Source: Paludibacteraceae bacterium (GTDB taxonomy: Bacteria; Bacteroidota; Bacteroidia; Bacteroidales; Paludibacteraceae). From it: 64,000 nt of DNA. The stretch is from contig JAXJWX010000091.1 of NCBI GenBank assembly GCA_036307765.1, positions 10,472-74,471 of the forward strand. Direction: 5' to 3'. The notes beneath the pieces were generated by a model, which made no database searches, was not told the origin of the DNA, and saw only the letters and a list, made by a program, of their open reading frames with translations. Every line of letters starts with the position of its first letter. Position 1 is the stretch's first letter. A program made the translations under genes and the position numbers. This document shows positions 14,700-40,640 of this stretch, piece after piece.

Positions 14700-14784
14700 G
14701 GAGAGATGGCAGAGTGGTCGATTGCGGCGGTCTTGAAAACCGTTGAGCTGAGAGGCTCCGGGGGTTCGAATCCCTCTCTCTCCG
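14700..14784 (+). tRNA. tRNA-Ser (anticodon TGA)
   Basis: Folded by hand: acceptor GGAGAGA/TCTCTCC, anticodon loop CTTGAAA, a long variable arm, and T loop TTCGAAT. Confidence 0.9.
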
Positions 14785-14792
14785 CAAAAGAA

Positions 14793-17187: not shown

Positions 17188-18060
17188 TTAGTTATAGTTA
17201 CGAATTAATAATTCAGTTAGTTTGCCTCGCTTTCTTGGATCCGCATTTATACTTCTTGATGCCCAAACTCGCTCAATTTGGTATTGCATATAGAGGTCGT
17301 CAAAGAACCCATCTTGACAGTCGGAGTTACTCAACATAAAATAATGACCTGCACCTTGAACTTGATCACAAAAGTCTTTTAATCGTTTTTGTGCTAAATC
17401 ATTGAATGCTTCTTTGGTGTAATCATTGAAACTACTTGTTGCATTAAGAGGACGATATGGTGGATCGAAATAGAAAAATGAATTACTCTTCGCATAATTG
17501 ATAGTTTGAGCGTAGTCGCCTGTCAATATTTCAACCTTTTGAAGTAATTCGCTATCGGCAAAAATAGTGTTTGCATCGCATATTGTTGGAGTTTCATAGC
17601 GTCCAAAGGGCACATTAAACAAGCCTGACTTATTTACTCGGTATAATCCATTAAAACAAGTGCGATTAAGAAAGAAAAATAGCGTTGTATTGCGAATAGG
17701 ATCAAGTGATTTAGTATTAAACTCTGCACGCATTAGCATAAAGAATTGTTTTTTGCTATCTTCTGCACGCAAAGAGTAATACTCCTTTTGGATCTCACTG
17801 AGAGAATTAACTAAAAGTTGTGGAGACTGCTTGACTACTTTGTAACAAGTAGTCAAATCTTCGTTGATGTCATTAATGACGGCTGATTGAATGTTGGAGT
17901 GTGTCTGCAACATATAGAAGAGCATTGCTCCTCCGCCCACGAAAGGCTCAATGTAAGTGACATTCTCCCATCTATCAAAGTCAGCAGGAAGCATTGCTTC
18001 AAGTTGGTCAATGAGTTGCGTTTTTCCGCCAACCCATTTGACAAATGGTTTCGCTTTCAT
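17188..18060 (-). CDS. Dam-family N6-adenine DNA methyltransferase (M.MboIA/DpnM-like)
   Basis: 290 aa with KPFVKWVGGK, EPFVGGGA (FxGxG) and FYFDPPY. Confidence 0.85.
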   Translation of the reverse strand: MKAKPFVKWVGGKTQLIDQLEAMLPADFDRWENVTYIEPFVGGGAMLFYMLQTHSNIQSAVINDINEDLTTCYKVVKQSPQLLVNSLSEIQKEYYSLRAEDSKKQFFMLMRAEFNTKSLDPIRNTTLFFFLNRTCFNGLYRVNKSGLFNVPFGRYETPTICDANTIFADSELLQKVEILTGDYAQTINYAKSNSFFYFDPPYRPLNATSSFNDYTKEAFNDLAQKRLKDFCDQVQGAGHYFMLSNSDCQDGFFDDLYMQYQIERVWASRSINADPRKRGKLTELLIRNYN

Positions 18061-18992: not shown

Positions 18993-19294
18993 CTCAAAAT
19001 AATAATTTTTATTATATAATGTATTTATGGAGATTGTTGGCGGATCTCCCCATTATTTTTTTTCTTTTTTGTTATATTTATATTAGACTTGCATTTCTTG
19101 CCAGTTATACATAAATAAAATAGAAGATGAATTATAATATGGTAATAATATAAAGAATGGTAATACGGTTTTCTGTTGGTTGTTCTCCACAATGGGCTGA
19201 TAGAAAATAAATATATGAGAGATAGAAAAGCACTTGAAATCTGAAAGCGGAGTGGAGACCGCAAGTAGGATTTCAAGTGTTATTTTTATTTTAT

Positions 19295-23234: not shown

Positions 23235-23912
23235 ATGAACCCATATATGACTATGACAACAGACATCAGAGCGGCAATATATGCTCGCGTATCCTCAACA
23301 GGGGAAAGACAATCAACAGAAAGACAAGTGATAGACCTAACAGATTACGCCAACAAGAACACGATGACGATATGTAGAACTTTTGAAGAGCATATATCGG
23401 GAGCGAAGAAGAACCACGAGCGACCAGTTCTCCAAGAGTGTTTGACATATTGTATAGAGGAGAAGGTTGATGTGTTATTGCTCTCGGAGTTGAGCCGCCT
23501 TGGTAGAAATGTAGATGAAGTCCTTGCTAATATCCGCTTCGCAAAGGAGAACCGCTTGAATGTCTATTTTCAAAAAGAAGGTATATCCATCTACGGAACT
23601 GATGGAAAAGAAAATCCTTACCTTACCATTATGATTGCAGTCCTCGGAACCTGCGCCCAAATGGAGCGTGAGAACATACACTATCGCTTGCAGTCAGGCA
23701 GAAAGGTTTATGTTGATAAGAACCTTGCTGCTACTGGTAAGTCAGGTCTTGGGAGAAAGGAAGGTTATCGCAAGCCAGTTGAAACAAAGAAAGAAGAATA
23801 TAAGGAGGCATTAAAACTTTTGCGCGCTGGATATCCAATACGAAAGGTTGCTAAACTAACATCTGTTTCTGAAAGCACCATTAAACGATTAAAGAAGGAG
23901 TTCGCAATATGA
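23235..23912 (+). CDS. Serine recombinase (resolvase/invertase family)
   Basis: 225 aa. AAIYARVSSTGERQSTERQ holds the catalytic Ser region, and there is a C-terminal HTH (IRKVAKLTSVSESTIKRL). Confidence 0.8.
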   Translation: MNPYMTMTTDIRAAIYARVSSTGERQSTERQVIDLTDYANKNTMTICRTFEEHISGAKKNHERPVLQECLTYCIEEKVDVLLLSELSRLGRNVDEVLANIRFAKENRLNVYFQKEGISIYGTDGKENPYLTIMIAVLGTCAQMERENIHYRLQSGRKVYVDKNLAATGKSGLGRKEGYRKPVETKKEEYKEALKLLRAGYPIRKVAKLTSVSESTIKRLKKEFAI

Positions 23913-24531: not shown

Positions 24532-25866
24532 ATGACTATTAATTTTGAATTATCAAAAAAAGAGGACGCGAACAAGATGCGTCAAATACTGGTAAGAATA
24601 TCGGTATCAAGAACCTTCCGAGTAGGGAGCAAGACTGGATTGTATGTGTCAATGAAAGATTGGGACGAAAAAAACAATTCTGTGAGAAAGATTAGTAAGA
24701 TTGAGCGTGTGGAAAAGCAGCAAGAACTCGCTACACTTCGTGATGAACTTGCAAAACTTGAAAGTCATATTGAACAAGCGATTATTAGCGAACGAGAATT
24801 GGAGAAGATGACGGATAAAAAGGATAGGCAGGAGTGGATAGATTTAGTGATTGAGAGTTTTTACGACCCCAGTGTAAAACTCACAAGAATGAAAAACCTG
24901 ACATTTGACGAGTTTGCAAAGATTTATGTGGAGGTTAGAAGTAAGGAAGAACATTGGAAGCCTGCAAAGAACAACCACATCAACAGAAAGAAACTCTGGG
25001 AACATCCGTCATTTGACAAATTAAGTGCAGTGCAGAGCCAAGTGCATAAGATGAACCCGAAATTACTGATGGACACGATTACAGGGGTGACATTGGACGA
25101 GTATCAACACTTCCTCGTAAGTCAAGGATATAACAACAAAACGATTGAGAACCATATTTCATATTTCAAACAGATTTTGCGATGGGCGTATGAGAAGGGA
25201 TATTTGAAATATGGCAGAGATGTGATGGAACACAAGGTTAAGGACTTAAAGATAGCAAAGCCCACACCATTCAATTATCTAACTTGGGATGAGTTTCTCC
25301 AATTTTACAATTGTGAGTTTGATGAATTGGAAAAAGACTTGGAGTTGGCAAGGGATAGATTTTGTTTCTGCTGCGCGACCTCGTTGCGACATAGTGATTT
25401 GGCGTTGTTAAAGAAATGCCATTTTGATAATCCCGATAACCCAACATCATTTAGTATCGTTAGTAAGAAGACGGATGATGCTCTCACCATCCCCCTAAAT
25501 GAATACAGCAGAAGTCTCTATAAAAAGTATAAGGATAAGGATAGTGATAATGGACTGCTTTTTCCAAAGAAGTCAAATCAGAAGATGAATAAGTGCTTGA
25601 AGAAAATTGCATTGAGGTTGGGGATAACGAGGGAGGTTAGCAAAACAGAGTATTCAGGAGCGGTCAGAAGCGACACCACAACAAGGATATGTGATATTAT
25701 TGCTACACACGCAGCCCGTAGAACTTTTGTAGTGCATTGTGCAGAAGAAGGTTGGTCGGAAGAACTGATTAGAACATACACTGGACACGAGGATTTTAGG
25801 GCAATGAGACCATATTTTGCAATCGGAGATAAGAAAAGGCAAATGTATATGGAAAAACATTTTTAG
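24532..25866 (+). CDS. Tyrosine-type site-specific integrase
   Basis: 444 aa with an N-terminal arm-binding-like region, a HAARRTF (HxxR) motif and TGHEDFRAMRPY containing the catalytic Tyr. Confidence 0.85.
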   Translation: MTINFELSKKEDANKMRQILVRISVSRTFRVGSKTGLYVSMKDWDEKNNSVRKISKIERVEKQQELATLRDELAKLESHIEQAIISERELEKMTDKKDRQEWIDLVIESFYDPSVKLTRMKNLTFDEFAKIYVEVRSKEEHWKPAKNNHINRKKLWEHPSFDKLSAVQSQVHKMNPKLLMDTITGVTLDEYQHFLVSQGYNNKTIENHISYFKQILRWAYEKGYLKYGRDVMEHKVKDLKIAKPTPFNYLTWDEFLQFYNCEFDELEKDLELARDRFCFCCATSLRHSDLALLKKCHFDNPDNPTSFSIVSKKTDDALTIPLNEYSRSLYKKYKDKDSDNGLLFPKKSNQKMNKCLKKIALRLGITREVSKTEYSGAVRSDTTTRICDIIATHAARRTFVVHCAEEGWSEELIRTYTGHEDFRAMRPYFAIGDKKRQMYMEKHF

Positions 25867-27211: not shown

Positions 27212-28540
27212 ATGATGAATCAATCTAATTTGATTACCGAGAAGCAAGACCTTCTCATCACCCCAAACCTCCAACCTAACCAACTACCAAACCTACTTGA
27301 GCAAGCTGTTGCTGTCGCACCCGTTGGTGAGACACGCGACATGCTGCTGCTCTCCTTACTCACCAATTGCGGCTATGCTCTGCCTGCCATGCGTATGCTC
27401 CACGGTCGCCCTCATCACACCTACAGTCCCGAGCTGCTGACCATGATTGTCGCCCCTGCTGCCTCGGGCAAAGGTATCATGAACTACGGACGCCTGCTCT
27501 TGCAAGCCATTGAGGGAAGCACCCCACGAGATCACGCATCTCGTCGGGGACCCCGCTGCAACCACGGCAAGCAGGTGTATATCCCTGCCAACTCGTCCGC
27601 CTCAGCCCTCATTAAGGTCATGGACGAGTATGACGGACGCGGTATTGTCTTTGCCACGGAGATGGACACCCTCACTCAGACACTCCGTGCCGCCTATGGT
27701 CATTTTGGCGACCTTGTTCGTTGTATCTTCGAGCACGAGACCGTTAGCCAACTCCGCCGCCAAAACAACGAGTTCATCGAGATTCGCAACCCGCGTATTG
27801 CTATGCTCCTCTCTGGTACGCCCAACCAAGTAGCACCATTGCTCCGCAATCGCGAGAATGGACTGATGTCCCGCTTTAGCTGCTATGTAGTCAATAGCCG
27901 TATGGACTTTGATGATCATGTGTGGGACGTAGAGGAAGAGGGCAATACGCCGAGCGAAGCCGTTCTCTATGACCGCCTTGCGACGGAATTGGGCGACCGC
28001 TACTTGTGGATGGAGACGGCAGGACACGAGTGTTATTTCTACCTCACAGACGCGCAACTCAAGACCATCAAACGTATGTTCCGCAGCGAGTATGACACTT
28101 ATAGCCAGGAGTTTGGCGACTTGTTCGATGCTTCACTCAAGCGTATGCCTGTCATTATGAAGCGTATTGGTATGATCTTGACGGGCTTGCGATTGGATAT
28201 GAAGAAGCCATTGCCTGAGCGCGTGGTTTGCTCGGAGGAGGATTTTCAGACAATGCTACTCATTGGTCACAAACTGCTGATGCACGCGGCGATGGTGTTC
28301 CAAATGATGCCCGAGCTGAAAGCCACTCCTGTGGGTGAGATAGGGGGCAATATGTTGCAAAAGCAGTTCTTCCAAATGCTTCCCACGGACTTCACTAAAC
28401 AAGATGCAGTGAAGCAAGCGGAAGTCCTTGGAGTGAGCGTGAAGACAATTGAAGTTTGGTTGCAGAAATATATACAATCATCAAATATAGAACGAGTTAT
28501 GCACGGCAGTTACCGCAAGGCAATATGTAAAACAGCGTAA
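27212..28540 (+). CDS. DUF3987-like P-loop protein (a family typical of Bacteroidales mobile elements)
   Basis: 442 aa with APAASGKG as a Walker-A-like motif. The assignment is from memory of the family, not from a search. Confidence 0.45.
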   Translation: MMNQSNLITEKQDLLITPNLQPNQLPNLLEQAVAVAPVGETRDMLLLSLLTNCGYALPAMRMLHGRPHHTYSPELLTMIVAPAASGKGIMNYGRLLLQAIEGSTPRDHASRRGPRCNHGKQVYIPANSSASALIKVMDEYDGRGIVFATEMDTLTQTLRAAYGHFGDLVRCIFEHETVSQLRRQNNEFIEIRNPRIAMLLSGTPNQVAPLLRNRENGLMSRFSCYVVNSRMDFDDHVWDVEEEGNTPSEAVLYDRLATELGDRYLWMETAGHECYFYLTDAQLKTIKRMFRSEYDTYSQEFGDLFDASLKRMPVIMKRIGMILTGLRLDMKKPLPERVVCSEEDFQTMLLIGHKLLMHAAMVFQMMPELKATPVGEIGGNMLQKQFFQMLPTDFTKQDAVKQAEVLGVSVKTIEVWLQKYIQSSNIERVMHGSYRKAICKTA

Positions 28541-29461: not shown

Positions 29462-30226
29462 TTAGACAAGTTCTTGCAACTCCATAATATCTAATAACGT
29501 GTAGTTGACTCCATCTATATGTGACTGCCAACATTGATGAAAATGACCATAGTACCAATGCCTCAACGGATGATTACCACGCAGCAAATGTGCATAAATA
29601 TCATCCAGCGTTTGGCGTTCTTGGGTAGTATCATTCCATAGTGCCGAATCTTTCAAGCACCATGTAGATAAACCTCGCTTGGTCTGCAATTCGCAGAAGG
29701 AAGGTGCCGTATGCGATACAACTGTATCTATTTTTATACCCTGCTCTACAAGAAAATCCAAAGCCATCGGATTATATATTGGTGCTTCATCCGTCCAATA
29801 TGCTTCGCGTTCGGGACATGCCTCCATCCATTGCAAACGCACACTACGATCAATAGAGATCGCCCCACCTACACAGAGGATATTATGATTGCATGCTTGC
29901 AAAAGGGTATAGTCAGGAACCGTTTGCCAACGCTCGTGTGTAATGCGTTTGTTGTCATTGAAATATGCAGGATTATCGTGGTTGCCTCGCAACATAACAA
30001 TCCAAAGATTATCGGCACAAAGGTAGTGTCCGATTTTCTGGTAGATGTTTTCGTAGTATTCAGGAACTTCAAAACCAAAGCCACAGTCGCCAGCTACAAT
30101 TATCAATGCATCGTGAATACCATACGTAACACGAAGTTTTTCAACAAGTGCAACAAATTCACCATGTATGTCACCACACACAACAATGGATTGTGCATCT
30201 GGGAAGGATAAAATAGGCGCAATCAT
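29462..30226 (-). CDS. PPP-family/calcineurin-like metallophosphoesterase (Ser/Thr phosphatase-like)
   Basis: 254 aa with VVCGDIHGEF (GDxHG), VAGDCGFG (a degenerate GDxxDRG) and RGNHD (GNHE-like). Confidence 0.7.
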   Translation of the reverse strand: MIAPILSFPDAQSIVVCGDIHGEFVALVEKLRVTYGIHDALIIVAGDCGFGFEVPEYYENIYQKIGHYLCADNLWIVMLRGNHDNPAYFNDNKRITHERWQTVPDYTLLQACNHNILCVGGAISIDRSVRLQWMEACPEREAYWTDEAPIYNPMALDFLVEQGIKIDTVVSHTAPSFCELQTKRGLSTWCLKDSALWNDTTQERQTLDDIYAHLLRGNHPLRHWYYGHFHQCWQSHIDGVNYTLLDIMELQELV

Positions 30227-30238
30227 TCTTCAACTTAT

Positions 30239-30799
30239 TTAATGCATATCATCATCACCCACAAAATCTTCATAGGACAATTTTACAAAATCTTTGAATA
30301 GTGTTTTCAGTGATCGATAACGATACTTTCTTTGAAGGTGCAATCCCTTCTTTAAAAGTCCATGCAAAGCGGGAGGAATGGAAGTTAAGTCTAAATGTCC
30401 TTCTTGACGTTTTTTCGACATATATTCTGCCCATTGCCCAGGTTCAAGCATATCCTCTGGCATCGCCCCAATATATGGTAATTCATCCGTAAGTATCTCA
30501 TACAAAATGGCACACAAGGCAAAAACAGAACAAGGAGCATCCCAGGCATGTCCATTGATATATTCTGGAGGATAATAAGGCTCAGCGGTATGAGGAGGAG
30601 GAAAGGATAATACTGATAACTGCTTTAGTTCGATATCCCAATCATCATTCATTTCAATGTATTCAGGACATACCCCTTCAAGAATAGTATCAGCTTCTGG
30701 GCATTTAGATAAATCTTCGGTCAATGCTCCGAAAATCACATAACCAATATACGGTGGCAGTGGTGCCTGTGTTTCAAAAAGAATTTGTAAATTTGTCAT
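30239..30799 (-). CDS. Stand-alone protein-kinase C-lobe-like protein (no N-lobe or catalytic loop)
   Basis: 186 aa. PYYPPEYINGHAWDAPCSVFALCAILYEILTDELPY aligns to the APE-to-alphaF region of Hanks kinases. No GxGxxG, VAIK, HRD or DFG motifs are present. Confidence 0.4.
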   Translation of the reverse strand: MTNLQILFETQAPLPPYIGYVIFGALTEDLSKCPEADTILEGVCPEYIEMNDDWDIELKQLSVLSFPPPHTAEPYYPPEYINGHAWDAPCSVFALCAILYEILTDELPYIGAMPEDMLEPGQWAEYMSKKRQEGHLDLTSIPPALHGLLKKGLHLQRKYRYRSLKTLFKDFVKLSYEDFVGDDDMH

Positions 30800-31270: not shown

Positions 31271-31858
31271 TTATTCTGATGCATATGGCAAATCAGCTAT
31301 CCCCTTTATATATTTTGCGGGTATGTAATCTGTTTGCCAAACATCGTTGGTGATTTTGTAGAAAACATATCCATCTGCTGCCATTGCTGCACTGTTGATT
31401 TCGAGTACTTCTGGCATATTCTGGTATCCTCCTAAGAAGTAAGCCTTTCCATAGATTGGAGATAAATGAAGTCTTGTGTGGTTCATCGGTTTTATACCTT
31501 CTTTAAAAATGAGGGGCAAACTGTTCTCTACTATTCCATAATATAGCACATTAGGAGGGGGCATTGGAATTGCGTCACTCTCTATTTTGATAGAGTGTCC
31601 ATATAAGGCGCGCACCTTCGTCTTGTCATCCGAGAAAATAAATCGCCCGTCGTCATCAAACAAGACAAGTGCGCTGATGACACATTCTTTATAGCCAGAT
31701 TCTTTACATAGTACATCAACTGACACCCAACCATATTTATCTGGTAAATTGGAATGTTGAAGCAGATAGGCAAGGCGTTTAGATTGAGCAGGAAATTCTG
31801 GAGTGAAAGCATTAGGTGGTAATTCAGACTCAGGTGAAACAATATTTGGAGGTAACAT
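31271..31858 (-). CDS. KptA/Tpt1-family RNA 2'-phosphotransferase-like protein
   Basis: 195 aa. It aligns with E. coli KptA in four blocks: SKRLAYLLQH, GRFIFS..VRALYGHS, PPNVLYYG and TRLHLS. The first catalytic Arg (LRH) is Gln here. Confidence 0.7.
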   Translation of the reverse strand: MLPPNIVSPESELPPNAFTPEFPAQSKRLAYLLQHSNLPDKYGWVSVDVLCKESGYKECVISALVLFDDDGRFIFSDDKTKVRALYGHSIKIESDAIPMPPPNVLYYGIVENSLPLIFKEGIKPMNHTRLHLSPIYGKAYFLGGYQNMPEVLEINSAAMAADGYVFYKITNDVWQTDYIPAKYIKGIADLPYASE

Positions 31859-32956: not shown

Positions 32957-33661
32957 TTAAAGCAAGAAAAATTGAATATACATTAAAATAGCCATTATAA
33001 TTCCTAAAACAATTAAAAACCTTATTTCTTTTTTTGATTGTTTTTCTATCTCTTCCATGTCCTTTTGCACTTGCTTTAAGTATTCCACATGTTCTCTATC
33101 TTTTCTTTCTTGTTCTTCTTTCTCTCTAGATTCTTCTGCCTTTTTTCTTTGTCTTTCATGTTCTGCAATTTTTCTCTGTCTTTCTAGCTCTTCCGCTATT
33201 CTCTTCTGCTCGGCTTCTTGCGCTGCACGACGGCGTTCTTCTTCAGCTTTTCTTTGTGCTTCTTGTTTTTTTTGTTTCCATTTTAAAAATTCTGGATCTG
33301 TTGCTTTTTTGAATTCTAGCCATTCTTGATATTCTGGATCAAGAACTTGTCTTGTAGGCTGTGGAAATGGAGGACGAAAAGGTTGTTATTTATCTCTTCT
33401 ATTTTTTTCTTCAGTAGCTTTCCTTAGTGCTTCAAGTTCGTCGGCAGCTCGTTTCTGTTCATCAGCAGCACGTTTTTGCTCACGAAAGGTATTCGCTTGA
33501 TCATCTAGTGATTGTAGGTGGTTATAATATGCGTCCGCCAAATCCTCTTCTTCTCTCCACTTGAATTTCTTTCGACATGAATAGTCATCTCTACAAATTT
33601 CAACATATTCATATTGACGACTCCATGTTCCCTCTATAAATTCTTTTCTAGCCATATTCAA
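32957..33661 (-). pseudogene. Paralog of the coiled-coil tail-anchored gene, interrupted by one in-frame TAA (33386-33388)
   Basis: The 91-aa ORF (33386-33661) continues in the same frame for another 142 codons with no ATG. That extension ends in a K/E-rich helix and the TM tail FLIVLGIIMAILMYIQFFLL. The DNA is similar to 32330-32410. Confidence 0.6.
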
Positions 33662-33783
33662 GTTAATCTTAAAATTATCTTAAATTATTAGGATATCCCA
33701 TCCCTGAGTATCCATTATTTCAAAAAACACTACCTATCATAAATGGAATCGTACTGATTGTCAATAACAGATGTGCTTTTTGA

Positions 33784-34524
33784 TTACTCATTTATACTAA
33801 AAAATGTATTTATTAATATTTTTCTTTTGTCAATATCGTCATTATATATCCATTCGTAGTTTTTAATCGCATCAGAGATACAAAATATAAAAGCAACATC
33901 AACTCCACGATAATTTGCTATTGAGGATAAAGCCGAGGACTCCATATCAATGCACTCGATTCCTTGACATTCTAAATGATGTATTAACATTGGAGTTTCC
34001 ATAAACAACGCCTCTGTAGTATAGCAATTTACCATATCTATTTTATAATTTCTTAATTTATTTTTTACATAATAATTCAAAGTCATTGATGTGGCTACAT
34101 TCAGTATACATTTTCCTATGTAAAACTGAGAAACACCTTCTCCAATAAAAGTATTTTTAAGCAATACAATGTCCCCTATGGCATAGCGACCAAGACTACA
34201 TGCATAACCATAAAATACAAACTCCGTAAATCCCAAATAAATCAAACAATCAAAATCTATCGCTGCTAATGCTGCTCCATTTCTTATAATAGCCAAAAAT
34301 ACTGGATTATTCTTATTATCTAATAAAAGAGAGAATATTTTAAACGATTTAACATCAACGACCAATGTTATATCATAGTCATTAAAATACTTTAAATAAC
34401 TACTATTAAAAAACACATGACATAAACCTGAAAATTGTTTGATGTTCTTTTCAAAACCACGACCTCTAAGATAATTTGTGGGGCATATGATGGGATTGTT
34501 ATTGCTTATTTGTTTTGAATACAT
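33784..34524 (-). CDS. Nucleoside phosphorylase superfamily protein, MTA/SAH (5'-dAdo) nucleosidase-like
   Basis: 246 aa. The DMESSAL and CISDA motifs correspond to the MtnN EMEAAA and ISDxAD blocks. It overlaps the upstream rSAM gene by 19 nt. Confidence 0.6.
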   Translation of the reverse strand: MYSKQISNNNPIICPTNYLRGRGFEKNIKQFSGLCHVFFNSSYLKYFNDYDITLVVDVKSFKIFSLLLDNKNNPVFLAIIRNGAALAAIDFDCLIYLGFTEFVFYGYACSLGRYAIGDIVLLKNTFIGEGVSQFYIGKCILNVATSMTLNYYVKNKLRNYKIDMVNCYTTEALFMETPMLIHHLECQGIECIDMESSALSSIANYRGVDVAFIFCISDAIKNYEWIYNDDIDKRKILINTFFSINE

Positions 34525-35708
34525 AATGGAGATATTTTATCTTTTGTTTGATCAACAATGGCGGCACACCAAAATTGGCACTTATCACACCGAGAACAAT
34601 TTGATTTTATTGCTTTTAAAGATTGTACAATCTTTGTATAAGTTAGACTATCTAGCAGTTCTCGTATGGAGTGATTGGTTAGATTTCCTATGTGCCACTT
34701 CTCTTGATACAATAGGGGACAAGGGGTAACCATTAATTCACTATTGATATATAATTGTCCAATTGCTGCATTACAATTAACTCCTCTAATATTAGCACGT
34801 GTGGTAATGTTCCTTTTCAATATGCTTTCATTAATTTTCTTTTGCACCAATCTTAGTTTATCATGAGTGAATTGTATATGCGAATAAGGTACAACAGGTG
34901 ATACTTCGAATTTAAAGTGCAAATCTTCACATACTATTTTATGTACTTTATCAATATCCTTGTAATTGATATCGTCAATTGTCATTGATACTTGCACATC
35001 AGCCCCTTTTAGCAATTCCAAAGCTTTTAAAGTTCGTCTAAAAGTTCCACAACCTCTTCTATAATCATGAGACTCTTCAATGCCATCTAAACTAATTCTA
35101 TAACAATCTACATATCTTTTTATTTCGGTAATATTAGTTATGTTTATTAATGTAGCATTAGTAAATAATTTCACATAAAACCCATATAATTTGGCTAATT
35201 TTATAATCTCAATAAAATTATTATGTACTATGGGCTCTCCCCCACTTATTTCTAATGATAAGATTCCTATATTGGCTAAATCTTTCAATATTACGTCATA
35301 TTTTTCGAACGGCACAAATTTCGGCTTAATATTATTGAGGTAACAATGCTGGCAATGTAAATTACAAGATGATGTAATAGCGAAATGAACAGATAATAAT
35401 CTAGTGTCTGTATTGTTAATTGAAGGAACAAATGAATGATCTTGGTTGATTATTGACATATTTTTCATAGTTGCAATAATATCAATAACATCTTGTTCTA
35501 TTTCTCTAGGATCAGTTTCATAAAATGTCTCTTGGAATTCTTTTATTATGTCAATAACTTTTGTCTTTCCATCAAGTTTTGACCAAACCTCAAAAAATGT
35601 ATAATTTCCCTCATACACTTCGCCATTATAATCAAGGACAATCAAAGTTCCGTTCGAATTATAATTGCTAATACGGCTCCTTGAATAATATTCGTTTAAC
35701 ATTAGCAC
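34506..35708 (-). CDS. Radical SAM peptide maturase with an N-terminal PqqD-like RRE and a C-terminal SPASM-like domain
   Basis: 400 aa. The N-terminus FFEVWSKLDGKTKVIDIIKEFQETF...VIDIIATMKNMSII is PqqD-like. CNLHCQHC is a CX3CX2C motif and SGGEP is present. C-terminal Cys clusters are CNAAIG..TPCP..CSRCDKCQFWC. Confidence 0.8.
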   Translation of the reverse strand: MLMLNEYYSRSRISNYNSNGTLIVLDYNGEVYEGNYTFFEVWSKLDGKTKVIDIIKEFQETFYETDPREIEQDVIDIIATMKNMSIINQDHSFVPSINNTDTRLLSVHFAITSSCNLHCQHCYLNNIKPKFVPFEKYDVILKDLANIGILSLEISGGEPIVHNNFIEIIKLAKLYGFYVKLFTNATLINITNITEIKRYVDCYRISLDGIEESHDYRRGCGTFRRTLKALELLKGADVQVSMTIDDINYKDIDKVHKIVCEDLHFKFEVSPVVPYSHIQFTHDKLRLVQKKINESILKRNITTRANIRGVNCNAAIGQLYINSELMVTPCPLLYQEKWHIGNLTNHSIRELLDSLTYTKIVQSLKAIKSNCSRCDKCQFWCAAIVDQTKDKISPLCIQNK

Positions 35709-35764
35709 TTTTAATATTGGTTACAAAATCAAATTCTCAAAAACTTTATAGAGTGTAATCATTG

Positions 35765-36586
35765 CTATATCTTAACCCATTCGTTTATTTCTTTTGTTGA
35801 AATATGCCAATCTATGATTTCGCTATCTTGTGGATTACAATATTTGCAAAAGGGGTGTGGTCTATTTAGTTTCTTTAATATATTTCCCATATCCTCTTCT
35901 TGATATATGTCATTATAATCTTTGTCTGTATATTCTAGTGGTAAATTGAAATGTTTGGCCAAATGTATACTATGTGCCGTAATATCACAAGTATATAATT
36001 TTCCTTCAAATAAATTTACACTTGCATTTGCATGAGTACAATGATACCAACTTCTAATACACATTTGCTTTCCACTTATATCCATTTTAAAATTTCGAAA
36101 TTTTTTTATACCAGTATCTATATCTATTTTAACAGTGACATTATTTTTTGTTGCTAATTTATAAATTAAAGTATAATCAAGATTTATCGGATAGTAACTT
36201 ACGATTATATCAATATGAAATTTGGCACATACTTCCCAAAATTTTTCATTCATGTCTGGCAACAATAAGCCATTAGTATGAATTGCGATTTCGTATTGAG
36301 GGAAGTTTAATCTTGCGATTTCCATAAATTCAATAATCTGAGGATGTAACAAAGGCTCGCCCCCCATTAATCTTATACGTCTAATATTCCCTTTGCTTAA
36401 AAAAGCTAATCTCTTAATGTCATTTTGAAAAATTTCTTTAGACATAAAATATTTTTCTGCCAATGGCGCAAAATGACAACAACATGCACAATTTAAATTA
36501 CAATGATTCGTTAGATGTATCTCCAAATAATCTAACGCTACTTTATTTCTATTCTTTTCCAATAAAATATCTAAGATCATGCGCAA
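35765..36586 (-). CDS. Radical SAM protein (small, MoaA/NifB/PqqE-like core)
   Basis: 273 aa with HLTNHCNLNCACC (CX3CX2C), MGGEPLLHP, and the C-terminal pair CKYC. Confidence 0.75.
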   Translation of the reverse strand: MRMILDILLEKNRNKVALDYLEIHLTNHCNLNCACCCHFAPLAEKYFMSKEIFQNDIKRLAFLSKGNIRRIRLMGGEPLLHPQIIEFMEIARLNFPQYEIAIHTNGLLLPDMNEKFWEVCAKFHIDIIVSYYPINLDYTLIYKLATKNNVTVKIDIDTGIKKFRNFKMDISGKQMCIRSWYHCTHANASVNLFEGKLYTCDITAHSIHLAKHFNLPLEYTDKDYNDIYQEEDMGNILKKLNRPHPFCKYCNPQDSEIIDWHISTKEINEWVKI

Positions 36587-36604
36587 AATTATTTTAAAAT
36601 CAAA

Positions 36605-37804
36605 TCAACAGTTCGAGTTTTGTCGGGTATAGTTAAATATTACATGCTGCCATTGATTAGTCTCTGATTTACTAGCTTCAATCATAGTATACCCATTCTC
36701 ACAAAGTTTGTTTATAACATAATTTATTTTTTTCTGAACACTATCAATTGACTTATATAATTGACCTATTGGGCTGTGCGGATGTAATGTACAGGGGAAT
36801 AAATTAATTTGTTGGAAACGAAGTGAGATTAAGTGTTTTAAAGTTTCATCTATATCGTTCTGTTTTTCTGTTGGATACCCAATTATTATATGTGTCGTTA
36901 AATACAAATTATTGTTATACTCTTTTATTTTTTTTATAAATTCAATAAACTCCACAACATTTAAATTTCGATTCATATCTCGAAGAATGTTGCTGCTAAA
37001 TGATTGTATTGGAATTGTTATTTTAAATAGTAAATTTGAATGATTTTTTATAAAATTATAAAATTCATTTCTATAACCTAATATCCACTTTGGATTAATT
37101 TCGAAATCAACACCCTTAATTTGAGTGTACGAACATATTTGTTCTAACAACTTAACAATGGTTAATTGACAGTCTATTCCATAGCCACCTCCGTCATCAG
37201 CGACTAATCTTATGTATGAAAAGTTTTGTTTTAAGGCTTTCTTTAGTTCTTCTATTATTGTACTAATAGCTTTGCTTTTATGGTGACCTATAACTTTTTT
37301 TATGGCACAATATGAACAATTACCATAACAACCCTTTGATATTCTTATTAAAAAGATATCACTCTTAAATATAGTATCATAATAAATATCATTTCCATCT
37401 TGTATATATTTAAGTTGCAGTTTGCAGGGGGGAAAATACATTTCTATGTCTTGCAATGCCTCATTGTTAATCACAACTACATTTTTGCTTAAGTTCAAGT
37501 TGTGCATTCCTATAATAGGAAAACAACCAAACACGAAAACATAATTGTAGTTTTCTTGAAAAAAATATAATTTTCGACAAGAGTCCCAGGACATTTCTTC
37601 AGAAAAAGAACAAGTAAAAAAGAATATTATATTGGCATCATGGGGGTTGTCAACAATTGTATATCCATTTTTTTGTAAATATTTTTTCACCCAAAAAGAA
37701 TCTAGCTCCCTTCTTTTACATGCATTACAACATATATAAATTCGTGCAGGATCCATAAGAAAATAATAGTTAGATTCTTTTTTATTAATAGGAATTATAT
37801 CCAT
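36605..37804 (-). CDS. Radical SAM enzyme with a MiaB/RimO-type (UPF0004) N-terminal methylthiotransferase domain
   Basis: 399 aa. The N-terminal three-Cys pattern IYICCNAC...ANIIFFFTCSF...VFGCFP aligns with MiaB GCQMN...NTC...GC. The core motif is GCYGNCSYC. Confidence 0.7.
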   Translation of the reverse strand: MDIIPINKKESNYYFLMDPARIYICCNACKRRELDSFWVKKYLQKNGYTIVDNPHDANIIFFFTCSFSEEMSWDSCRKLYFFQENYNYVFVFGCFPIIGMHNLNLSKNVVVINNEALQDIEMYFPPCKLQLKYIQDGNDIYYDTIFKSDIFLIRISKGCYGNCSYCAIKKVIGHHKSKAISTIIEELKKALKQNFSYIRLVADDGGGYGIDCQLTIVKLLEQICSYTQIKGVDFEINPKWILGYRNEFYNFIKNHSNLLFKITIPIQSFSSNILRDMNRNLNVVEFIEFIKKIKEYNNNLYLTTHIIIGYPTEKQNDIDETLKHLISLRFQQINLFPCTLHPHSPIGQLYKSIDSVQKKINYVINKLCENGYTMIEASKSETNQWQHVIFNYTRQNSNC

Positions 37805-37853
37805 GAAAAGTAAACAATGATTTGCTATATTCTTATCTCATTTTATGGTAAAC

Positions 37854-37915
37854 TAACATGAGTTCGATATAAAGACCACCTATTTCAGCTGCTGTTTATA
37901 TTCGAACTCATGTTA
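37854..37915 (-). promoter_or_regulatory. 20-bp inverted repeat between the peptide gene and the first rSAM gene (attenuator or processing hairpin)
   Basis: taacatgagttcgatataaa (37854-37873) pairs with tttatattcgaactcatgtta (37895-37915), with one bulge. Confidence 0.5.
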
Positions 37916-37939
37916 ATTAAGTATTACGCATAGACTCAC

Positions 37940-38014
37940 TTATTGACAACACATCATAGATTCTAAAGTTTGTTGTGCAGATTTTTTAATTTCTGGTTTT
38001 TTCCATGTTTTCAT
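37940..38014 (-). CDS. 24-aa candidate precursor peptide MKTWKKPEIKKSAQQTLESMMCCQ
   Basis: My own translation of ATG 38012-38014 to TAA 37940-37942, preceded by aaaggaaatttgt. It is below the ORF-track size cutoff. It has a WKKP leader like PqqA and lies 135 nt upstream of the rSAM genes on the same strand. Confidence 0.55.
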   Translation of the reverse strand: MKTWKKPEIKKSAQQTLESMMCCQ

Positions 38015-38100
38015 ACAAATTTCCTTTCGTTGAAAATAATACAGTTACTAATTTAGATTGCGCCAGTATATTGAAAAGAGCAACTTATAAAAATAGAATG

Positions 38101-38235
38101 TTATCTATTTTTCTCCGCTTGCTCGGCTTCATATTGACATTTAGGAGAACAATAGGTTCTTCGACTTCCTAACCAAATTCTACCTTGTCCTTTTCCAATT
38201 ACAGGATCTCCACACCATGCGCATGTGGCAACCAT
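38101..38235 (-). CDS. 44-aa zinc-ribbon mini-protein (CAWC...CSPKC)
   Basis: My own translation: MVATCAWCGDPVIGKGQGRIWLGSRRTYCSPKCQYEAEQAEKNR. It is below the ORF-track cutoff. Confidence 0.35.
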   Translation of the reverse strand: MVATCAWCGDPVIGKGQGRIWLGSRRTYCSPKCQYEAEQAEKNR

Positions 38236-38386
38236 TCCAGCGTCATTTAATGGCTCTTTTACAAAAAACTCATAATCAAAATTTTAAATATTACGTCGGT
38301 TCTTATACTTTTATTTTATGTTGGCATGTAATCTGAACCGATTTAAGATCACATGCTGTTATACTTACATTTTACTCACCAAAATA

Positions 38387-38647
38387 CTATTCTTTATCAG
38401 GCCAATAGGTTTGCTGAACAATATCAGTTTTTCCACTTGAATCTGATTTAACGGTTCTTCCGTCATCTTCATTAATGATGTAATGTATGTGACTTCCCCC
38501 ATCTCTTTTATCTTCATCTTGTCTCGTAGAGCAATAATCGTTACCACTTTTGAAAGATTGATAACTGGAATCTTCCCACTCTCTTCTATCTTTTGAAGCT
38601 TCGGTTGGAGTAGCGTAATCTTGAATATGATTATGTTTATTACTCAT
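38387..38647 (-). CDS. Hypothetical small hydrophilic protein
   Basis: An 86-aa ORF rich in D/E/K/S, with no recognisable motif. Confidence 0.35.
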   Translation of the reverse strand: MSNKHNHIQDYATPTEASKDRREWEDSSYQSFKSGNDYCSTRQDEDKRDGGSHIHYIINEDDGRTVKSDSSGKTDIVQQTYWPDKE

Positions 38648-38748
38648 AACTAATACTGCCAGTTATATACCGTCGGCTCGTCGGTTTTTAAGATAAACAT
38701 CAATAAAAGTGTACTACTCACACATTGCAGTGTGACATTATTCAGAAA

Positions 38749-38859
38749 TTATCTTTGACGTTCACGCACATTCTGACAGATAGGACAAAGTCCCATTCCA
38801 TTTTGAAGGATTTCGAGTGGCCAAGATTTGCCACAACCTTTGCATGTTCCCATTTCCAT
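38749..38859 (-). CDS. 36-aa zinc-ribbon mini-protein (CKGC...CPIC)
   Basis: My own translation: MEMGTCKGCGKSWPLEILQNGMGLCPICQNVRERQR. Confidence 0.35.
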   Translation of the reverse strand: MEMGTCKGCGKSWPLEILQNGMGLCPICQNVRERQR

Positions 38860-39099
38860 AATTATTAGATTTTATTTCCTACTCTTACAGCTTCGTAGGT
38901 CCTGCTTGGATACAACACAAAAAAGCGGGACTGCACTATTACTGCTCCGCCATCCGAGGTTCTAGCATGACCTTCTATTCCAAAGAAAATTTATGCTAGA
39001 TTAAACGGATGACCAAAAGTAAAGAGCGTTTAAACGCCTTTTATGTCTGTGTCCCTCACCTAAAAATGTTCAAACATCCCCAGCGTGAGATTCACCGTG

Positions 39100-39107
39100 C
39101 AAAGGTA
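39100..39107 (-). promoter_or_regulatory. -7 box (TACCTTTG on the minus strand) at the head of the AT-rich gene train
   Basis: caaaggta lies ~240 nt upstream of the first small ORF. A structured leader lies between them. Confidence 0.4.
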
Positions 39108-39165
39108 CAACAAAATTTTGAATAATCCAAATATTCGCTATATTATTGCAAAAAATATTTTTATC

Positions 39166-39182
39166 GGAGTTTTTGCAACTCC
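39166..39182 (-). terminator. Terminator hairpin after the AAA+ ATPase gene
   Basis: ggagtt/aactcc form a 6-bp stem, followed on the minus strand by an A/U-rich run ending in UUUUUU. Confidence 0.4.
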
Positions 39183-39218
39183 TAAGTGTACATTTAAAAA
39201 TGTTTGACTTCAACCTAT

Positions 39219-40640
39219 TTAATACTCAAATAAATCATCCATAGTTATTACTTTTTGGATAGAACTTGAATATGTATTTGGGGTTAAGCCATACGGACTA
39301 ATATATGTGGCTTGAATACCGAATCTAATTCCCGTTTGATTAACAAAAGCCGCTTGGCGAGTACGGAACTTCAAGTCAGCATCTTTAGTAATCGTATATG
39401 GCAAATTGCTATATTTGATTTCACATAGATTGATTATTCTATCGGCACGCTCTATGAGCAGGTCTATTTGTGCTTTTTGTTCTTTGTCAGTACTGCGCCA
39501 TGAATAATATTCAGTTCCTATTTGATCGATACCAATGGCTTTTTTAATTTGAAGGATATGCGACATACAAACACGCTCAAATGCCAATCCAAAGAAAGTA
39601 TTTGTTTTCGGTGAAAGCAAATTATGACTCCAATAGTGTTCATCATTGGATGGCGTATCTAAATAGGTATGATAGAATTGCACAAACGAATCAGACAATA
39701 CATAATATCCACCTGTCTTGTTGATTTTTTTCAAACGTACCCTATGGTAACAAATGAAATCACATTTTTCGAGATTATCCAACAACTTGGTCAATCCGCC
39801 TCCGTCCGATTTCCCCAAATGTTCCGCCAATTCATCACGCGTTAATCCGTAGCGATGATTCGCTAAAGCTCCAACAATCGTCATATATGGTTCTGGATTG
39901 GTAAAAAGCGAAGAAAATAATCGATAGTATTCTTCACAAAGTTCACCTTGAGCAGTAAAGAGCAGTCTATCAATAGCTTCCGCCACACTTTCGGATGACT
40001 TAATAAGGCTCAAATAGTATGGTACACCTCCGAAGACCATATATGCTTGCATGATGGACTGTCTATCCCATACCATACCACGCGCTTGAAAATACTCTTC
40101 GCATTGTGCTAAGTTGAATGGGTGAAGATGCATAGTATGGGTGATTCGATTATGCAATCCACCATGGTTATTGACTATATTATCTACCATCCATGAAGTT
40201 GCAGAACCACAGACGATGAGTATTAGATTATTATGTTTTGATACCCAACTATTCCAAAAATGACCTAATGCAACCACAAAACGAGTACTACGCACGTCTA
40301 AGCATGGCAACTCATCAATAAAAATCACTTGACGCTGATCTTCCTTTATTTTGGGGGTAAGCGTTTGCTCCAAAGCAAAGAAAGCATCCATCCATGTGTT
40401 AGCATACAAACCAGTATAACCAATCTTGCGAAGCGAATGATTGAATGCGGCAAATTGATCTTCCGAACTACCATGAATAATACCAGAAGTCTCAAAGACA
40501 ATCATATCAGCAAAAATATTGCTGATTAAAAATGTTTTTCCAACACGGCGACGACCATACATGGCTATAAATTCCGCTTGCTGCGAGTCCACATAACTTT
40601 GTAAAAGAGCCTTCTCATTCGTTCTTCCTATCAGTTGCAT
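39219..40640 (-). CDS. Orphan AAA+ ATP-binding protein (Arch_ATPase-like N-terminus, DUF234-like C-terminus)
   Basis: 473 aa with Walker A GRRRVGKTF and Walker B VIFIDELP. Confidence 0.6.
   Translation of the reverse strand: MQLIGRTNEKALLQSYVDSQQAEFIAMYGRRRVGKTFLISNIFADMIVFETSGIIHGSSEDQFAAFNHSLRKIGYTGLYANTWMDAFFALEQTLTPKIKEDQRQVIFIDELPCLDVRSTRFVVALGHFWNSWVSKHNNLILIVCGSATSWMVDNIVNNHGGLHNRITHTMHLHPFNLAQCEEYFQARGMVWDRQSIMQAYMVFGGVPYYLSLIKSSESVAEAIDRLLFTAQGELCEEYYRLFSSLFTNPEPYMTIVGALANHRYGLTRDELAEHLGKSDGGGLTKLLDNLEKCDFICYHRVRLKKINKTGGYYVLSDSFVQFYHTYLDTPSNDEHYWSHNLLSPKTNTFFGLAFERVCMSHILQIKKAIGIDQIGTEYYSWRSTDKEQKAQIDLLIERADRIINLCEIKYSNLPYTITKDADLKFRTRQAAFVNQTGIRFGIQATYISPYGLTPNTYSSSIQKVITMDDLFEY

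Follow-up and report, generated by a model that had tools for sequence, protein, structure and literature searches.

A conserved 24-codon open reading frame, the likely substrate peptide gene of a rare three-radical-SAM cassette in Bacteroidales

The window analyzed here, a 64,000-nucleotide stretch of a Paludibacteraceae metagenome-assembled genome (MAG; assembly GCA_036307765.1, contig JAXJWX010000091.1, positions 10,472 to 74,471), contains on its minus strand a 24-codon open reading frame (ORF) that is followed by genes for three radical S-adenosylmethionine (SAM) enzymes. Comparison with homologous loci indicates that this ORF is a conserved protein-coding gene, and it is most likely translated into the substrate, a precursor or scaffold peptide, of the enzymes encoded downstream. 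The elements of the locus follow each other in the order peptide gene, stem-loop, methylthiotransferase (MTTase)-like enzyme, small twitch-type radical SAM enzyme, an enzyme that combines a recognition element for peptides that are ribosomally synthesized and then post-translationally modified (RiPPs) with radical SAM and SPASM domains, and a nucleoside phosphorylase (PNP)-like protein. The RiPP recognition element is abbreviated RRE below.

38020..38027, minus strand: purine-rich stretch AAAGGAAA, Shine-Dalgarno-like, 5 nt before the ATG of the peptide gene
37940..38014, minus strand: predicted precursor or scaffold peptide gene of 24 codons, MKTWKKPEIKKSAQQTLESMMCCQ; ATG 38014..38012, TAA 37942..37940
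37854..37916, minus strand: stem-loop of ~20 bp, 24 nt after the stop of the peptide gene and before the first enzyme gene
36605..37804, minus strand: MiaB/RimO-type radical SAM methylthiotransferase-like protein, 399 aa, with UPF0004 and radical SAM core
35765..36586, minus strand: twitch-type radical SAM protein with a SpeY/BtrN-like fold, 271-273 aa; probable true start at ATG 36580
34506..35708, minus strand: RRE (PqqD-like), radical SAM and SPASM peptide maturase, 398-400 aa, the core enzyme of the cassette
33784..34524, minus strand: PNP_UDP_1 (nucleoside phosphorylase/nucleosidase-like) protein, 246 aa (PF01048, 1.2e-11); the gene overlaps that for the RRE enzyme at the stop of the latter

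The ORF had been pointed out in a preliminary description of the locus, and re-reading of the sequence bears this out: the minus-strand frame from the ATG at 38014 to the TAA at 37940 translates as MKTWKKPEIKKSAQQTLESMMCCQ followed by a stop, and it is the first ORF upstream of the three radical SAM genes, co-oriented with them. The purine-rich stretch noticed ahead of the ATG is present as well, and roughly half of the loci compared below have AAGGA- or AGGAGG-like motifs ahead of the peptide gene, the others having none; because Bacteroidota depend little on Shine-Dalgarno pairing, such a motif is weak evidence. The exact peptide is absent from a collection of 15 billion proteins, although neighboring proteins of the same MAG are in it; the ORF is thus unannotated, as had been stated, and genome annotation overlooks a key gene of the cassette. 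The surrounding 18 kb contains 246 ORFs that are 20 aa or longer, so that a length of 24 aa is meaningless by itself and significance can only come from conservation. Another small ORF, Cys-rich (CAWCG...CSPKC) and with weak similarity to TRASH/zinc-ribbon domains (E 0.003), is located just upstream of the peptide gene (38101-38235, minus strand); it is called as a 57-aa gene in two near-identical loci (L007 and L008; compared loci are designated by L numbers) and was not seen in the other loci.

Only 14 close homologs of the 400-aa RRE enzyme, with 46-99% identity, were found among 5.8 billion clustered proteins, and the contigs that encode them were compared with the window. Homologs of the MTTase-like enzyme led to two further loci, one with a new peptide variant and the other an outgroup (L102) in which the MTTase-like enzyme is 36% identical. 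An ORF in the same frame is found upstream of every homologous cassette for which there is enough upstream DNA, amounting to 12 distinct variants, 11 of which are 24 codons long. All 12 contain the N-terminal motif W-[KQE]-K-P-[EK]-[IVL] and share invariant W4, K6, P7, E18, M20, C22 and Q24, the last directly before the stop, with an identical spacing between the Trp and the Cys; the conserved C-terminal ending is E-[SA]-M-[MVI]-C-x-Q-stop. The C-terminal pair of cysteines that had been highlighted in the preliminary description did not hold up as a conserved feature: only C22 is invariant, residue 23 can be Cys, Asn, Ser, Thr, Met or Ile, and Cys-Cys occurs in some variants only. Ser12 and Gln15 vary as well, the former being replaced by Ala in L099 and by Asp in L102, and the latter by Glu in L102. 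The outgroup peptide, which ends in MWEKPELDDDEEEIRESMVCIQ directly before the stop, retains both W-x-K-P-E-L and E-S-M-V-C-x-Q-stop at an unchanged Trp-to-Cys spacing. A correspondence between Met21 and the presence of the MTTase-like gene, considered because Val21 occurs in L013 and L014, where this gene is not at its usual position, was rejected given that L102 combines Val21 with an MTTase-like gene.

The pattern of nucleotide substitution is that of a protein-coding gene. Across 10 variants, the mean proportion of synonymous differences (pS) is 0.92 versus 0.14 for nonsynonymous differences (pN), with pS exceeding pN in 44 of the 45 pairs, and all four Pro codons occur among the peptide variants. 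Nucleotide identity is 76% within the ORF versus 31% in the 75-nt flanks, and the remaining five frames hold stops in most loci. Saturated synonymous sites, conserved residues, low identity of the flanks and closure of the other frames jointly indicate that the ORF is a protein-coding gene under purifying selection. The frame is kept in all informative loci, contrary to the possibility, raised at the outset, that it might not be conserved in syntenic regions.

A pattern search proceeding from the peptide to the enzymes leads back to the same loci. A 66-nt degenerate DNA pattern that was derived solely from the invariant peptide residues had exactly one match in the window and in each of the 12 informative family loci, and no match in 80 unrelated RRE/radical SAM loci (~0.8 Mb) that served as a negative control; these were retrieved by a profile search with the RRE-enzyme alignment, and among the matches listed, their enzymes are at most 38% identical, the search being driven by generic radical SAM motifs. 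When applied to the metagenome collection, the pattern identified five stretches, four of which are cassette-bearing or part of the cassette, two NCBI contigs among them, the only other one being an orphan array (L099); a scan of viral contigs produced 0 matches and a tblastn search against plasmids found none. In the orphan array (contig QMCD01001023.1, 1..1400, minus strand), placed between mutS and an Mrr-like ORF, the peptide gene occurs three times in tandem, and hairpins recur in the intergenic stretches; the array comprises one full copy (MKKWQKPEIKKAEQQMVEAMMCNQ), one 3' fragment that ends in AEQQMVEAIMCNQ and a stop, and one copy with a 1-nt deletion.

The 400-aa enzyme provides a candidate partner for the peptide. 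It contains a PqqD domain (31.0 bits versus the Pfam cut-off of 23.4) along with Radical_SAM and SPASM domains; the radical SAM motif and seven SPASM cysteines are invariant, and the Prokaryotic Genome Annotation Pipeline names the protein 'PqqD family peptide modification chaperone'. The AlphaFold2 model (predicted local distance difference test, pLDDT, 84; predicted template modeling score, pTM, 0.86) has N-terminal beta-strands followed by three helices, and Foldseek places SuiB first among its structural relatives (1.4e-16), followed by CteB, SkfB and then the anaerobic sulfatase-maturating enzyme, with PqqE ranking 43rd. By sequence, the nearest families are StsB, AlbA and SkfB, all far below the family cut-offs (in NCBIfam, 101.7 bits against 625 for StsB, 79.9 against 850 for AlbA, 56 against 300 for the SkfB type and 75 against 650 for WgkB), and PapB is not among the 25 NCBIfam matches listed; with all scores so far below cut-off, the maturase is not a member of any curated sacti- or ranthi-synthase family.

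In ten loci of the main family, residues 17-34 of the RRE carry a net charge of -1 to -5, and peptide residues 8-17 a net charge of 0 to +3. In the outgroup L102, the peptide segment 8-17 has a net charge of -6 (LDDDEEEIR) and the RRE segment 17-34 one of +5 (KIELYGRNGKIKKGNR). Because the middle of the peptide turns acidic where the beta-hairpin of the RRE turns basic, the swap supports a direct contact between leader and RRE, as far as this can be judged from sequence comparison; it is what would be expected of a peptide whose middle rests on the hairpin, in the manner of leaders in known RRE complexes. The notion that a precursor gene for the downstream RRE and radical SAM genes had been missed is therefore sustained by the conserved frame, purifying selection, the reverse search and the co-variation of charge. 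As an adjacent, co-oriented ORF that is conserved together with the RRE enzyme, it most likely encodes a RiPP precursor of the RRE-dependent radical SAM class.

The other three proteins of the cassette are related to enzymes of diverse functions, and the iron-sulfur and cofactor motifs are intact across the cassette enzymes. The 399-aa protein encoded first matches UPF0004 (PF00919, 1.1e-8) and scores 173.3 bits against TIGR00089, below the cut-off of 251, the match stopping at position 349 of the 429 in the profile; its closest PDB entry is RimO (4jc0, 4.8e-20), with MiaB also near. Nine members of this family share invariant C26/C29, C65, C94 and C159x3C163x2C166. No TRAM domain was detected in the protein by a Pfam scan or in 13 close homologs, for which the precomputed Pfam list consists of PF04055 and PF00919 only. 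The UPF0004 Cys triad and radical SAM core are common to this protein and RimO, MiaB and MtaB, and RimO demonstrates that this type of enzyme can act on a polypeptide; unlike RimO and MiaB, the protein has no TRAM domain, falls short of the TIGR00089 cut-off and has its gene within a peptide-modification cassette, whereas theirs stand alone.

The small radical SAM protein has an invariant C27x3C31x2C34 motif and five or six further cysteines (C118, C181, C198, C245, C248). Its AlphaFold2 model (pLDDT 95) superposes on SpeY (7wzx) over the full length (E 3.7e-16, TM score 0.76, root-mean-square deviation ~3 A), BtrN being next, and the additional cysteines are those expected of a twitch auxiliary cluster. 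Sequence identity is only 21%, and whereas the known members of the SpeY/BtrN group oxidize hydroxyls of aminoglycoside sugars or cyclitols, no such substrate is evident here. The family, large and uncharacterized, has more than 570 matches at E<=1e-8, with 37-47% full-length identity among the matches listed, and no NCBIfam equivalog; some of its members are fused to PF22674 or PF17836 domains. The 246-aa PNP-like protein, for which the closest PDB entry is the 5'-methylthioadenosine phosphorylase of S. solfataricus (1jds, 5e-6), belongs to a family with invariant D193-M-E195 and S217-D218 motifs, which we take to be the ribose-binding and catalytic residues; its gene occurs in every one of the 11 locus groups whose sequence reaches far enough.

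The specific chemistry that we propose for the cassette derives from folds and enzyme relatives and is tentative. The peptide gene would have its own start, and the stem-loop behind it would probably pass only some of the transcripts on to the enzyme genes. In the peptide, residues ~1-12 (W4-x-K6-P7-E-I) form the putative leader and E18-S-M20-M-C22-x-Q24 the putative core. Across the family, the leader motif W4-x-K6-P7-E-[IVL] together with residues 8-17 would be bound by the RRE of the 400-aa enzyme along the beta-hairpin 17-34, a step for which the co-variation of charge argues, and E18-[SA]-M20-[MVI]-C22-x-Q24-COOH would be the core. The SPASM enzyme would most likely connect Cys22 with a carbon atom in one of the invariant residues close by, E18 (E-x3-C) and Q24 being the candidates, and the kinship of the enzyme suggests that this link would be a thioether of the sacti/ranthipeptide type. 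The RimO/MiaB-like enzyme, devoid of the RNA-binding TRAM domain, might methylthiolate the peptide at an unactivated carbon, comparable to the action of RimO on a protein Asp, and the SpeY/BtrN-like twitch enzyme, judging by its fold, might perform an oxidation or dehydrogenation. The PNP-like protein could clear the inhibitory SAM by-products 5'-deoxyadenosine, 5'-methylthioadenosine and S-adenosylhomocysteine that would be released by the three SAM-consuming enzymes.

Such an organization resembles the SkfA/SkfB, CteA/CteB-SCIFF, subtilosin AlbA and PapA/PapB systems, in which a short precursor with a Cys in the C-terminal core is encoded next to an RRE-radical SAM-SPASM maturase; a hairpin after the precursor gene is a further feature in common with sacti/ranthipeptide systems, and the maturase is nearest to StsB, AlbA, SkfB and CteB in sequence or fold. 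The differences are that the peptide has a single conserved Cys (C22), in contrast to the several usually found in known sacti- and ranthipeptides, that no protease or ABC exporter is conserved, and that the cassette includes two additional types of radical SAM enzymes not known in those systems.

Several observations weigh against this interpretation or parts of it. Of the cassette components, the peptide and the RRE-SPASM enzyme alone are universal among the loci. In L013 and L014 (k141_3379704 and Ga0209628_10045463), the small radical SAM gene comes directly after the peptide gene, and an MTTase-like gene is missing from the usual position (given that ~140-160 nt of upstream sequence are available, it could lie elsewhere), and in L102, the small radical SAM gene is not found between the genes for the MTTase-like and RRE enzymes. 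L011 is devoid of the peptide stop codon and the hairpin (41 nt, by comparison with L002), its ATG region is replaced, and FYK followed by a stop is added; these changes (region 1-170) all lie within 110 nt of the end of a Logan contig and could reflect a pseudogene in decay or an assembly artefact caused by collapse of the hairpin. The peptide copies of the orphan array L099 are accompanied by no cassette within the 1.1 kb of downstream sequence that is available. The swap of charges amounts to one evolutionary event. SuiB, the top structural match of the maturase, anchors its substrate via the SPASM domain rather than the RRE (PMC10906245), so that binding of the peptide by the RRE is not guaranteed. 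Across the compared loci, neither a protease gene nor an exporter gene consistently accompanies the cassette, and hence a secreted RiPP released by leader cleavage is not the obvious end point. Finally, the closest structural relatives of the small radical SAM enzyme act on sugars or cyclitols, not on peptides, and its family is far larger than the cassette, so that this enzyme and the PNP-like protein may have a non-peptide substrate.

The resemblance of the N-terminus to that of PqqA, the precursor of pyrroloquinoline quinone (PQQ), was central to the preliminary description and holds in part. Klebsiella PqqA does begin with MWKKPAF (100% tblastn identity to annotated pqqA), and eight real PqqA sequences have a W-x-[KTQ]-P-[AS]-[FYW] start and, four positions before the reactive residue, a Glu; the W-x-K-P motif is therefore shared, and such sharing was demonstrated for PqqA only, not for the wider range of precursors. 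Homology beyond W-x-K-P is unsupported. None of 10 peptide variants matched the PqqA models of Pfam (PF08042) or NCBIfam (TIGR02107), even at E<=10, nor did any other curated precursor model in these databases match a tested variant at this threshold; hhalign against the eight PqqA sequences aligned just five columns (xWxKP) with a probability of 12.7%, and as high a score was reached by 10 of 300 controls with shuffled columns. No variant contains Tyr, so that the E-x3-Y pair of PqqA is absent, the equivalent positions being E18-x3-C22; profile searches of the window proteins revealed no PqqB or PqqC among the neighbors of the cassette, and the 400-aa enzyme scores 48 bits against the PqqE model, for which the cut-off is 381. 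We conclude from these comparisons that the peptide has one motif and its general layout in common with PqqA, without being a member of the PqqA family.

The layout deserves attention nevertheless, given that it underlies the strongest of the alternatives to a RiPP precursor of the kind outlined above. As in the PqqA/PqqD/PqqE system, a peptide of 24 (compared to 23-24) aa is encoded first in the operon, with W-x-K-P followed by a hydrophobic residue at the N-terminus and an invariant Glu four positions ahead of the residue that reacts, and a PqqD-type RRE is combined with a radical SAM-SPASM enzyme. The two systems differ in the spacing between Trp and Glu (14 here, 13 in PqqA), in the E-x3-C in place of E-x3-Y, in the fusion of the RRE to the enzyme, in the lack of PqqB and PqqC, in the additional MTTase-like, twitch radical SAM and PNP-like genes, and in the closer affinity of the maturase to SuiB, CteB and SkfB. 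In a similar vein, mycofactocin (MftA/B/C) and pearlin/3-thiaglutamate pathways start from a small peptide, with chemistry at its extreme C-terminus, RRE-dependent recognition and no exporter; no sequence relationship was detected, the enzyme scores 70.6 bits against MftC, with a cut-off of 265, and C-x-Q replaces G-V-Y.

By analogy with these pathways, the peptide could be a scaffold that is consumed to yield a small sulfur molecule or cofactor from the cross-linked E18...C22, or else a peptide-(deoxy)ribosyl conjugate that would be processed by the sugar-type radical SAM enzyme and the nucleosidase-like enzyme. We consider this unlikely, albeit less so than the other alternatives. It would account for the lack of a conserved exporter or dedicated protease, for the SpeY/BtrN sugar-dehydrogenase fold of the small radical SAM enzyme, for the translational coupling of the PNP-like enzyme to the RRE enzyme in all loci, and for the variation of residues 19, 21 and 23, which parallels that of the residues excised in PqqA. 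These points have to be set against the failure to demonstrate PqqA homology or PqqB/PqqC-like genes, the proximity of the maturase, in both sequence and fold, to sactisynthases and streptide-type maturases rather than PqqE, and the patchy, island-borne distribution in a handful of strains, which is unlike that of a housekeeping cofactor. Similarly improbable is the broader proposition of a novel peptide-templated pathway, in which the nucleosidase-like, RimO-type methylthiotransferase and sugar-type twitch radical SAM enzymes would use the 24-aa peptide as a PqqA-like scaffold and make on it either a small molecule with sulfur or a peptide-(deoxy)ribosyl conjugate, for instance by adenosylation and subsequent removal of the base, as in the futalosine pathway. 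The product would then not be a secreted antibiotic; it would work within the cell and belong to a mobile defense island, together with the recurrent Tpt1/KptA-family and 241-aa partners described below.

The structural similarity of the maturase to SuiB suggests a further alternative to a C-terminal modification of the precursor, namely, that W4-x-K6 itself is the modified site, receiving a Trp-Lys cross-link of the streptide or WGK type, and that the C-terminus serves for recognition or as a second site. W4 and K6 are indeed invariant and, as in the streptide (SuiA/SuiB) and WGK radical SAM RiPP systems, the Trp and Lys are two residues apart; SuiB, which ranks first among the structural matches, cross-links Lys and Trp, and WgkB is among the weak NCBIfam matches. 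This assignment nevertheless appears quite improbable. Sequence identity to SuiB is 17%, the thioether-forming CteB and SkfB match the model almost equally well, and the score against WgkB is a small fraction of the cut-off. The W-x-K motif is located at the extreme N-terminus, and a core that starts three residues from the N-terminus would leave no leader. Moreover, PqqA has the same N-terminal W-x-K-P and is modified at Glu and Tyr near the C-terminus, its N-terminal part being considered the PqqD-bound leader (PMC10906245).

A precursor gene at the head of the cassette also agrees with the features of the intergenic region. The stem-loop in the window has a minimum free energy of -35.8 kcal/mol (z = -5.1), and strong, non-homologous stem-loops occupy the same position in L002, L004, L005, L010, L012 and L095, several of them followed by T-runs; no T-run follows the stem-loop in the window. 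Hairpins after RiPP precursor genes are common, and partial termination at such hairpins sets the ratio of precursor to enzyme transcripts. We infer that the stem-loop is an attenuator or a processing hairpin. An Rfam scan of 33000-39500 produced no family match, and a scan with sigma-70 and simple terminator models, which are uninformative for a genome of Bacteroidota, made no terminator call. In six of 12 loci, the 200 nt ahead of the peptide gene contain TAnnTTTG, the -7 promoter motif of Bacteroidota, versus a background of 0.13 per 200 nt; the motif was not found upstream in the window itself.

The same stem-loop, together with the Met-Met-Cys(-Cys) codons at the 3' end of the ORF, could be taken to mean that the ORF is a regulatory leader only, that is, an attenuator coupled to translation, which responds to the supply of Met, Cys or SAM for the SAM-consuming operon and produces a functionless peptide. 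A strong stem-loop follows in nearly all loci, in some with T-runs, but the hairpin in the window is without one. An attenuator does not require conservation of the whole peptide, including W-x-K-P-E-I, at saturated synonymous change, and the putative sensor codons are not fixed, given that V or I is allowed at position 21 and position 23 is free. Furthermore, the RRE domain encoded in the operon needs a peptide ligand, the charge of the peptide co-varies with that of the RRE, and the tandem copies in L099 are typical of precursor genes. A purely regulatory role is accordingly very hard to reconcile with the comparative evidence. As for a chance ORF in AT-rich intergenic DNA, an explanation compatible with the multitude of short ORFs around it and with the missing database annotation, the conservation of frame, length and residues in 12 variants, the large excess of pS over pN and the background identity of the flanks refute it.

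With the peptide gene thus most plausibly a RiPP precursor, the cassette is most likely a rare three-radical-SAM modification system of the radical SAM RiPP kind in Bacteroidales, unusual within that class for its MiaB/RimO-type enzyme and its nucleoside phosphorylase-like protein. A profile search of 1.84 billion cluster representatives identified two full-length members of the RRE enzyme family (630 and 391 bits), the next best match scoring 225 bits and most of the top matches below lacking the N-terminal RRE domain; the clusters of cassette proteins have 4-6 members, versus 315-640 for adjacent housekeeping genes. Neither Pfam, NCBIfam (June 2026) and PADLOC families nor the literature searched describe the peptide or the combination of enzymes, and in the same sources a sactisynthase-like maturase joined by a SpeY-like twitch enzyme and a nucleoside-cleaving enzyme has no described counterpart; the literature search found no RiPP methylthiotransferase. 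Should the proposed chemistry prove correct, this would be the first RiPP-type system in which a methylthiotransferase of the MiaB/RimO family acts on a ribosomal peptide, and the targets of this enzyme class would no longer be confined to tRNA and ribosomal protein S12. With a short peptide whose invariant positions (W4, K6, P7, E18, M20, C22 and Q24) are defined, the pathway is directly testable.

The cassette, with a G+C content of 28-29% compared to ~50% for the host MAG, is part of a low-G+C mobile and defense island of ~26 kb (14700-41000) that starts at a tRNA-Ser(tga) gene (14700-14785) and encodes, in addition to the cassette:

17188-18060: D12 DNA methyltransferase
19277-22141: helicase
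23235-23912: resolvase
24532-25866: tyrosine integrase
27212-28540: DUF3987 protein
29462-30226: metallophosphatase
30239-30799: truncated kinase-like ORF resembling PD-T4-6
31271..31858, minus strand: Tpt1/KptA-family (PTS_2-RNA) protein, 195 aa (PF01885, 1.4e-19), a recurrent but not universal neighbor
39219-40640, minus strand: ATPase_2/DUF234 protein, 473 aa, directly upstream of the cassette; matches PDC-S27, a candidate defense model of PADLOC, over the full length (E 1.1e-178)

The cassette itself matches no system of PADLOC-DB v2: the radical SAM enzymes yield only generic core matches to pVip models, and the MTTase-like and PNP-like proteins none. The PDC-S27 ATPase accordingly informs on the island context only. 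Elsewhere, the cassette loci are set among BrxL, PP2C, ADP-ribosylglycohydrolase, ArdC and RteC genes. A Tpt1/KptA homolog, which has no PADLOC match, adjoins the cassette in three independent locus groups, in differing positions: the window, L001/L098 and L009/L010 (L001 1022-1531, L009 2078-2611, L010 5196-5627). An unannotated protein of ~241 aa, without a Pfam or PADLOC match, is likewise encoded beside the cassette in three independent loci (L001 310-1035, L004 8907-9638, L007 9941-10663), its gene overlapping that of KptA in L001 and the stop of the PNP-like gene in L004. A few kb downstream of the cassette, two loci contain another radical SAM gene followed by a tiny ORF, namely, a 367-aa radical SAM-SPASM protein and a 51-aa ORF in L005 (11628-12927) and an 811-aa radical SAM protein and a 42-aa ORF in L004 (12423-14989), which may represent additional peptide-modification pairs.

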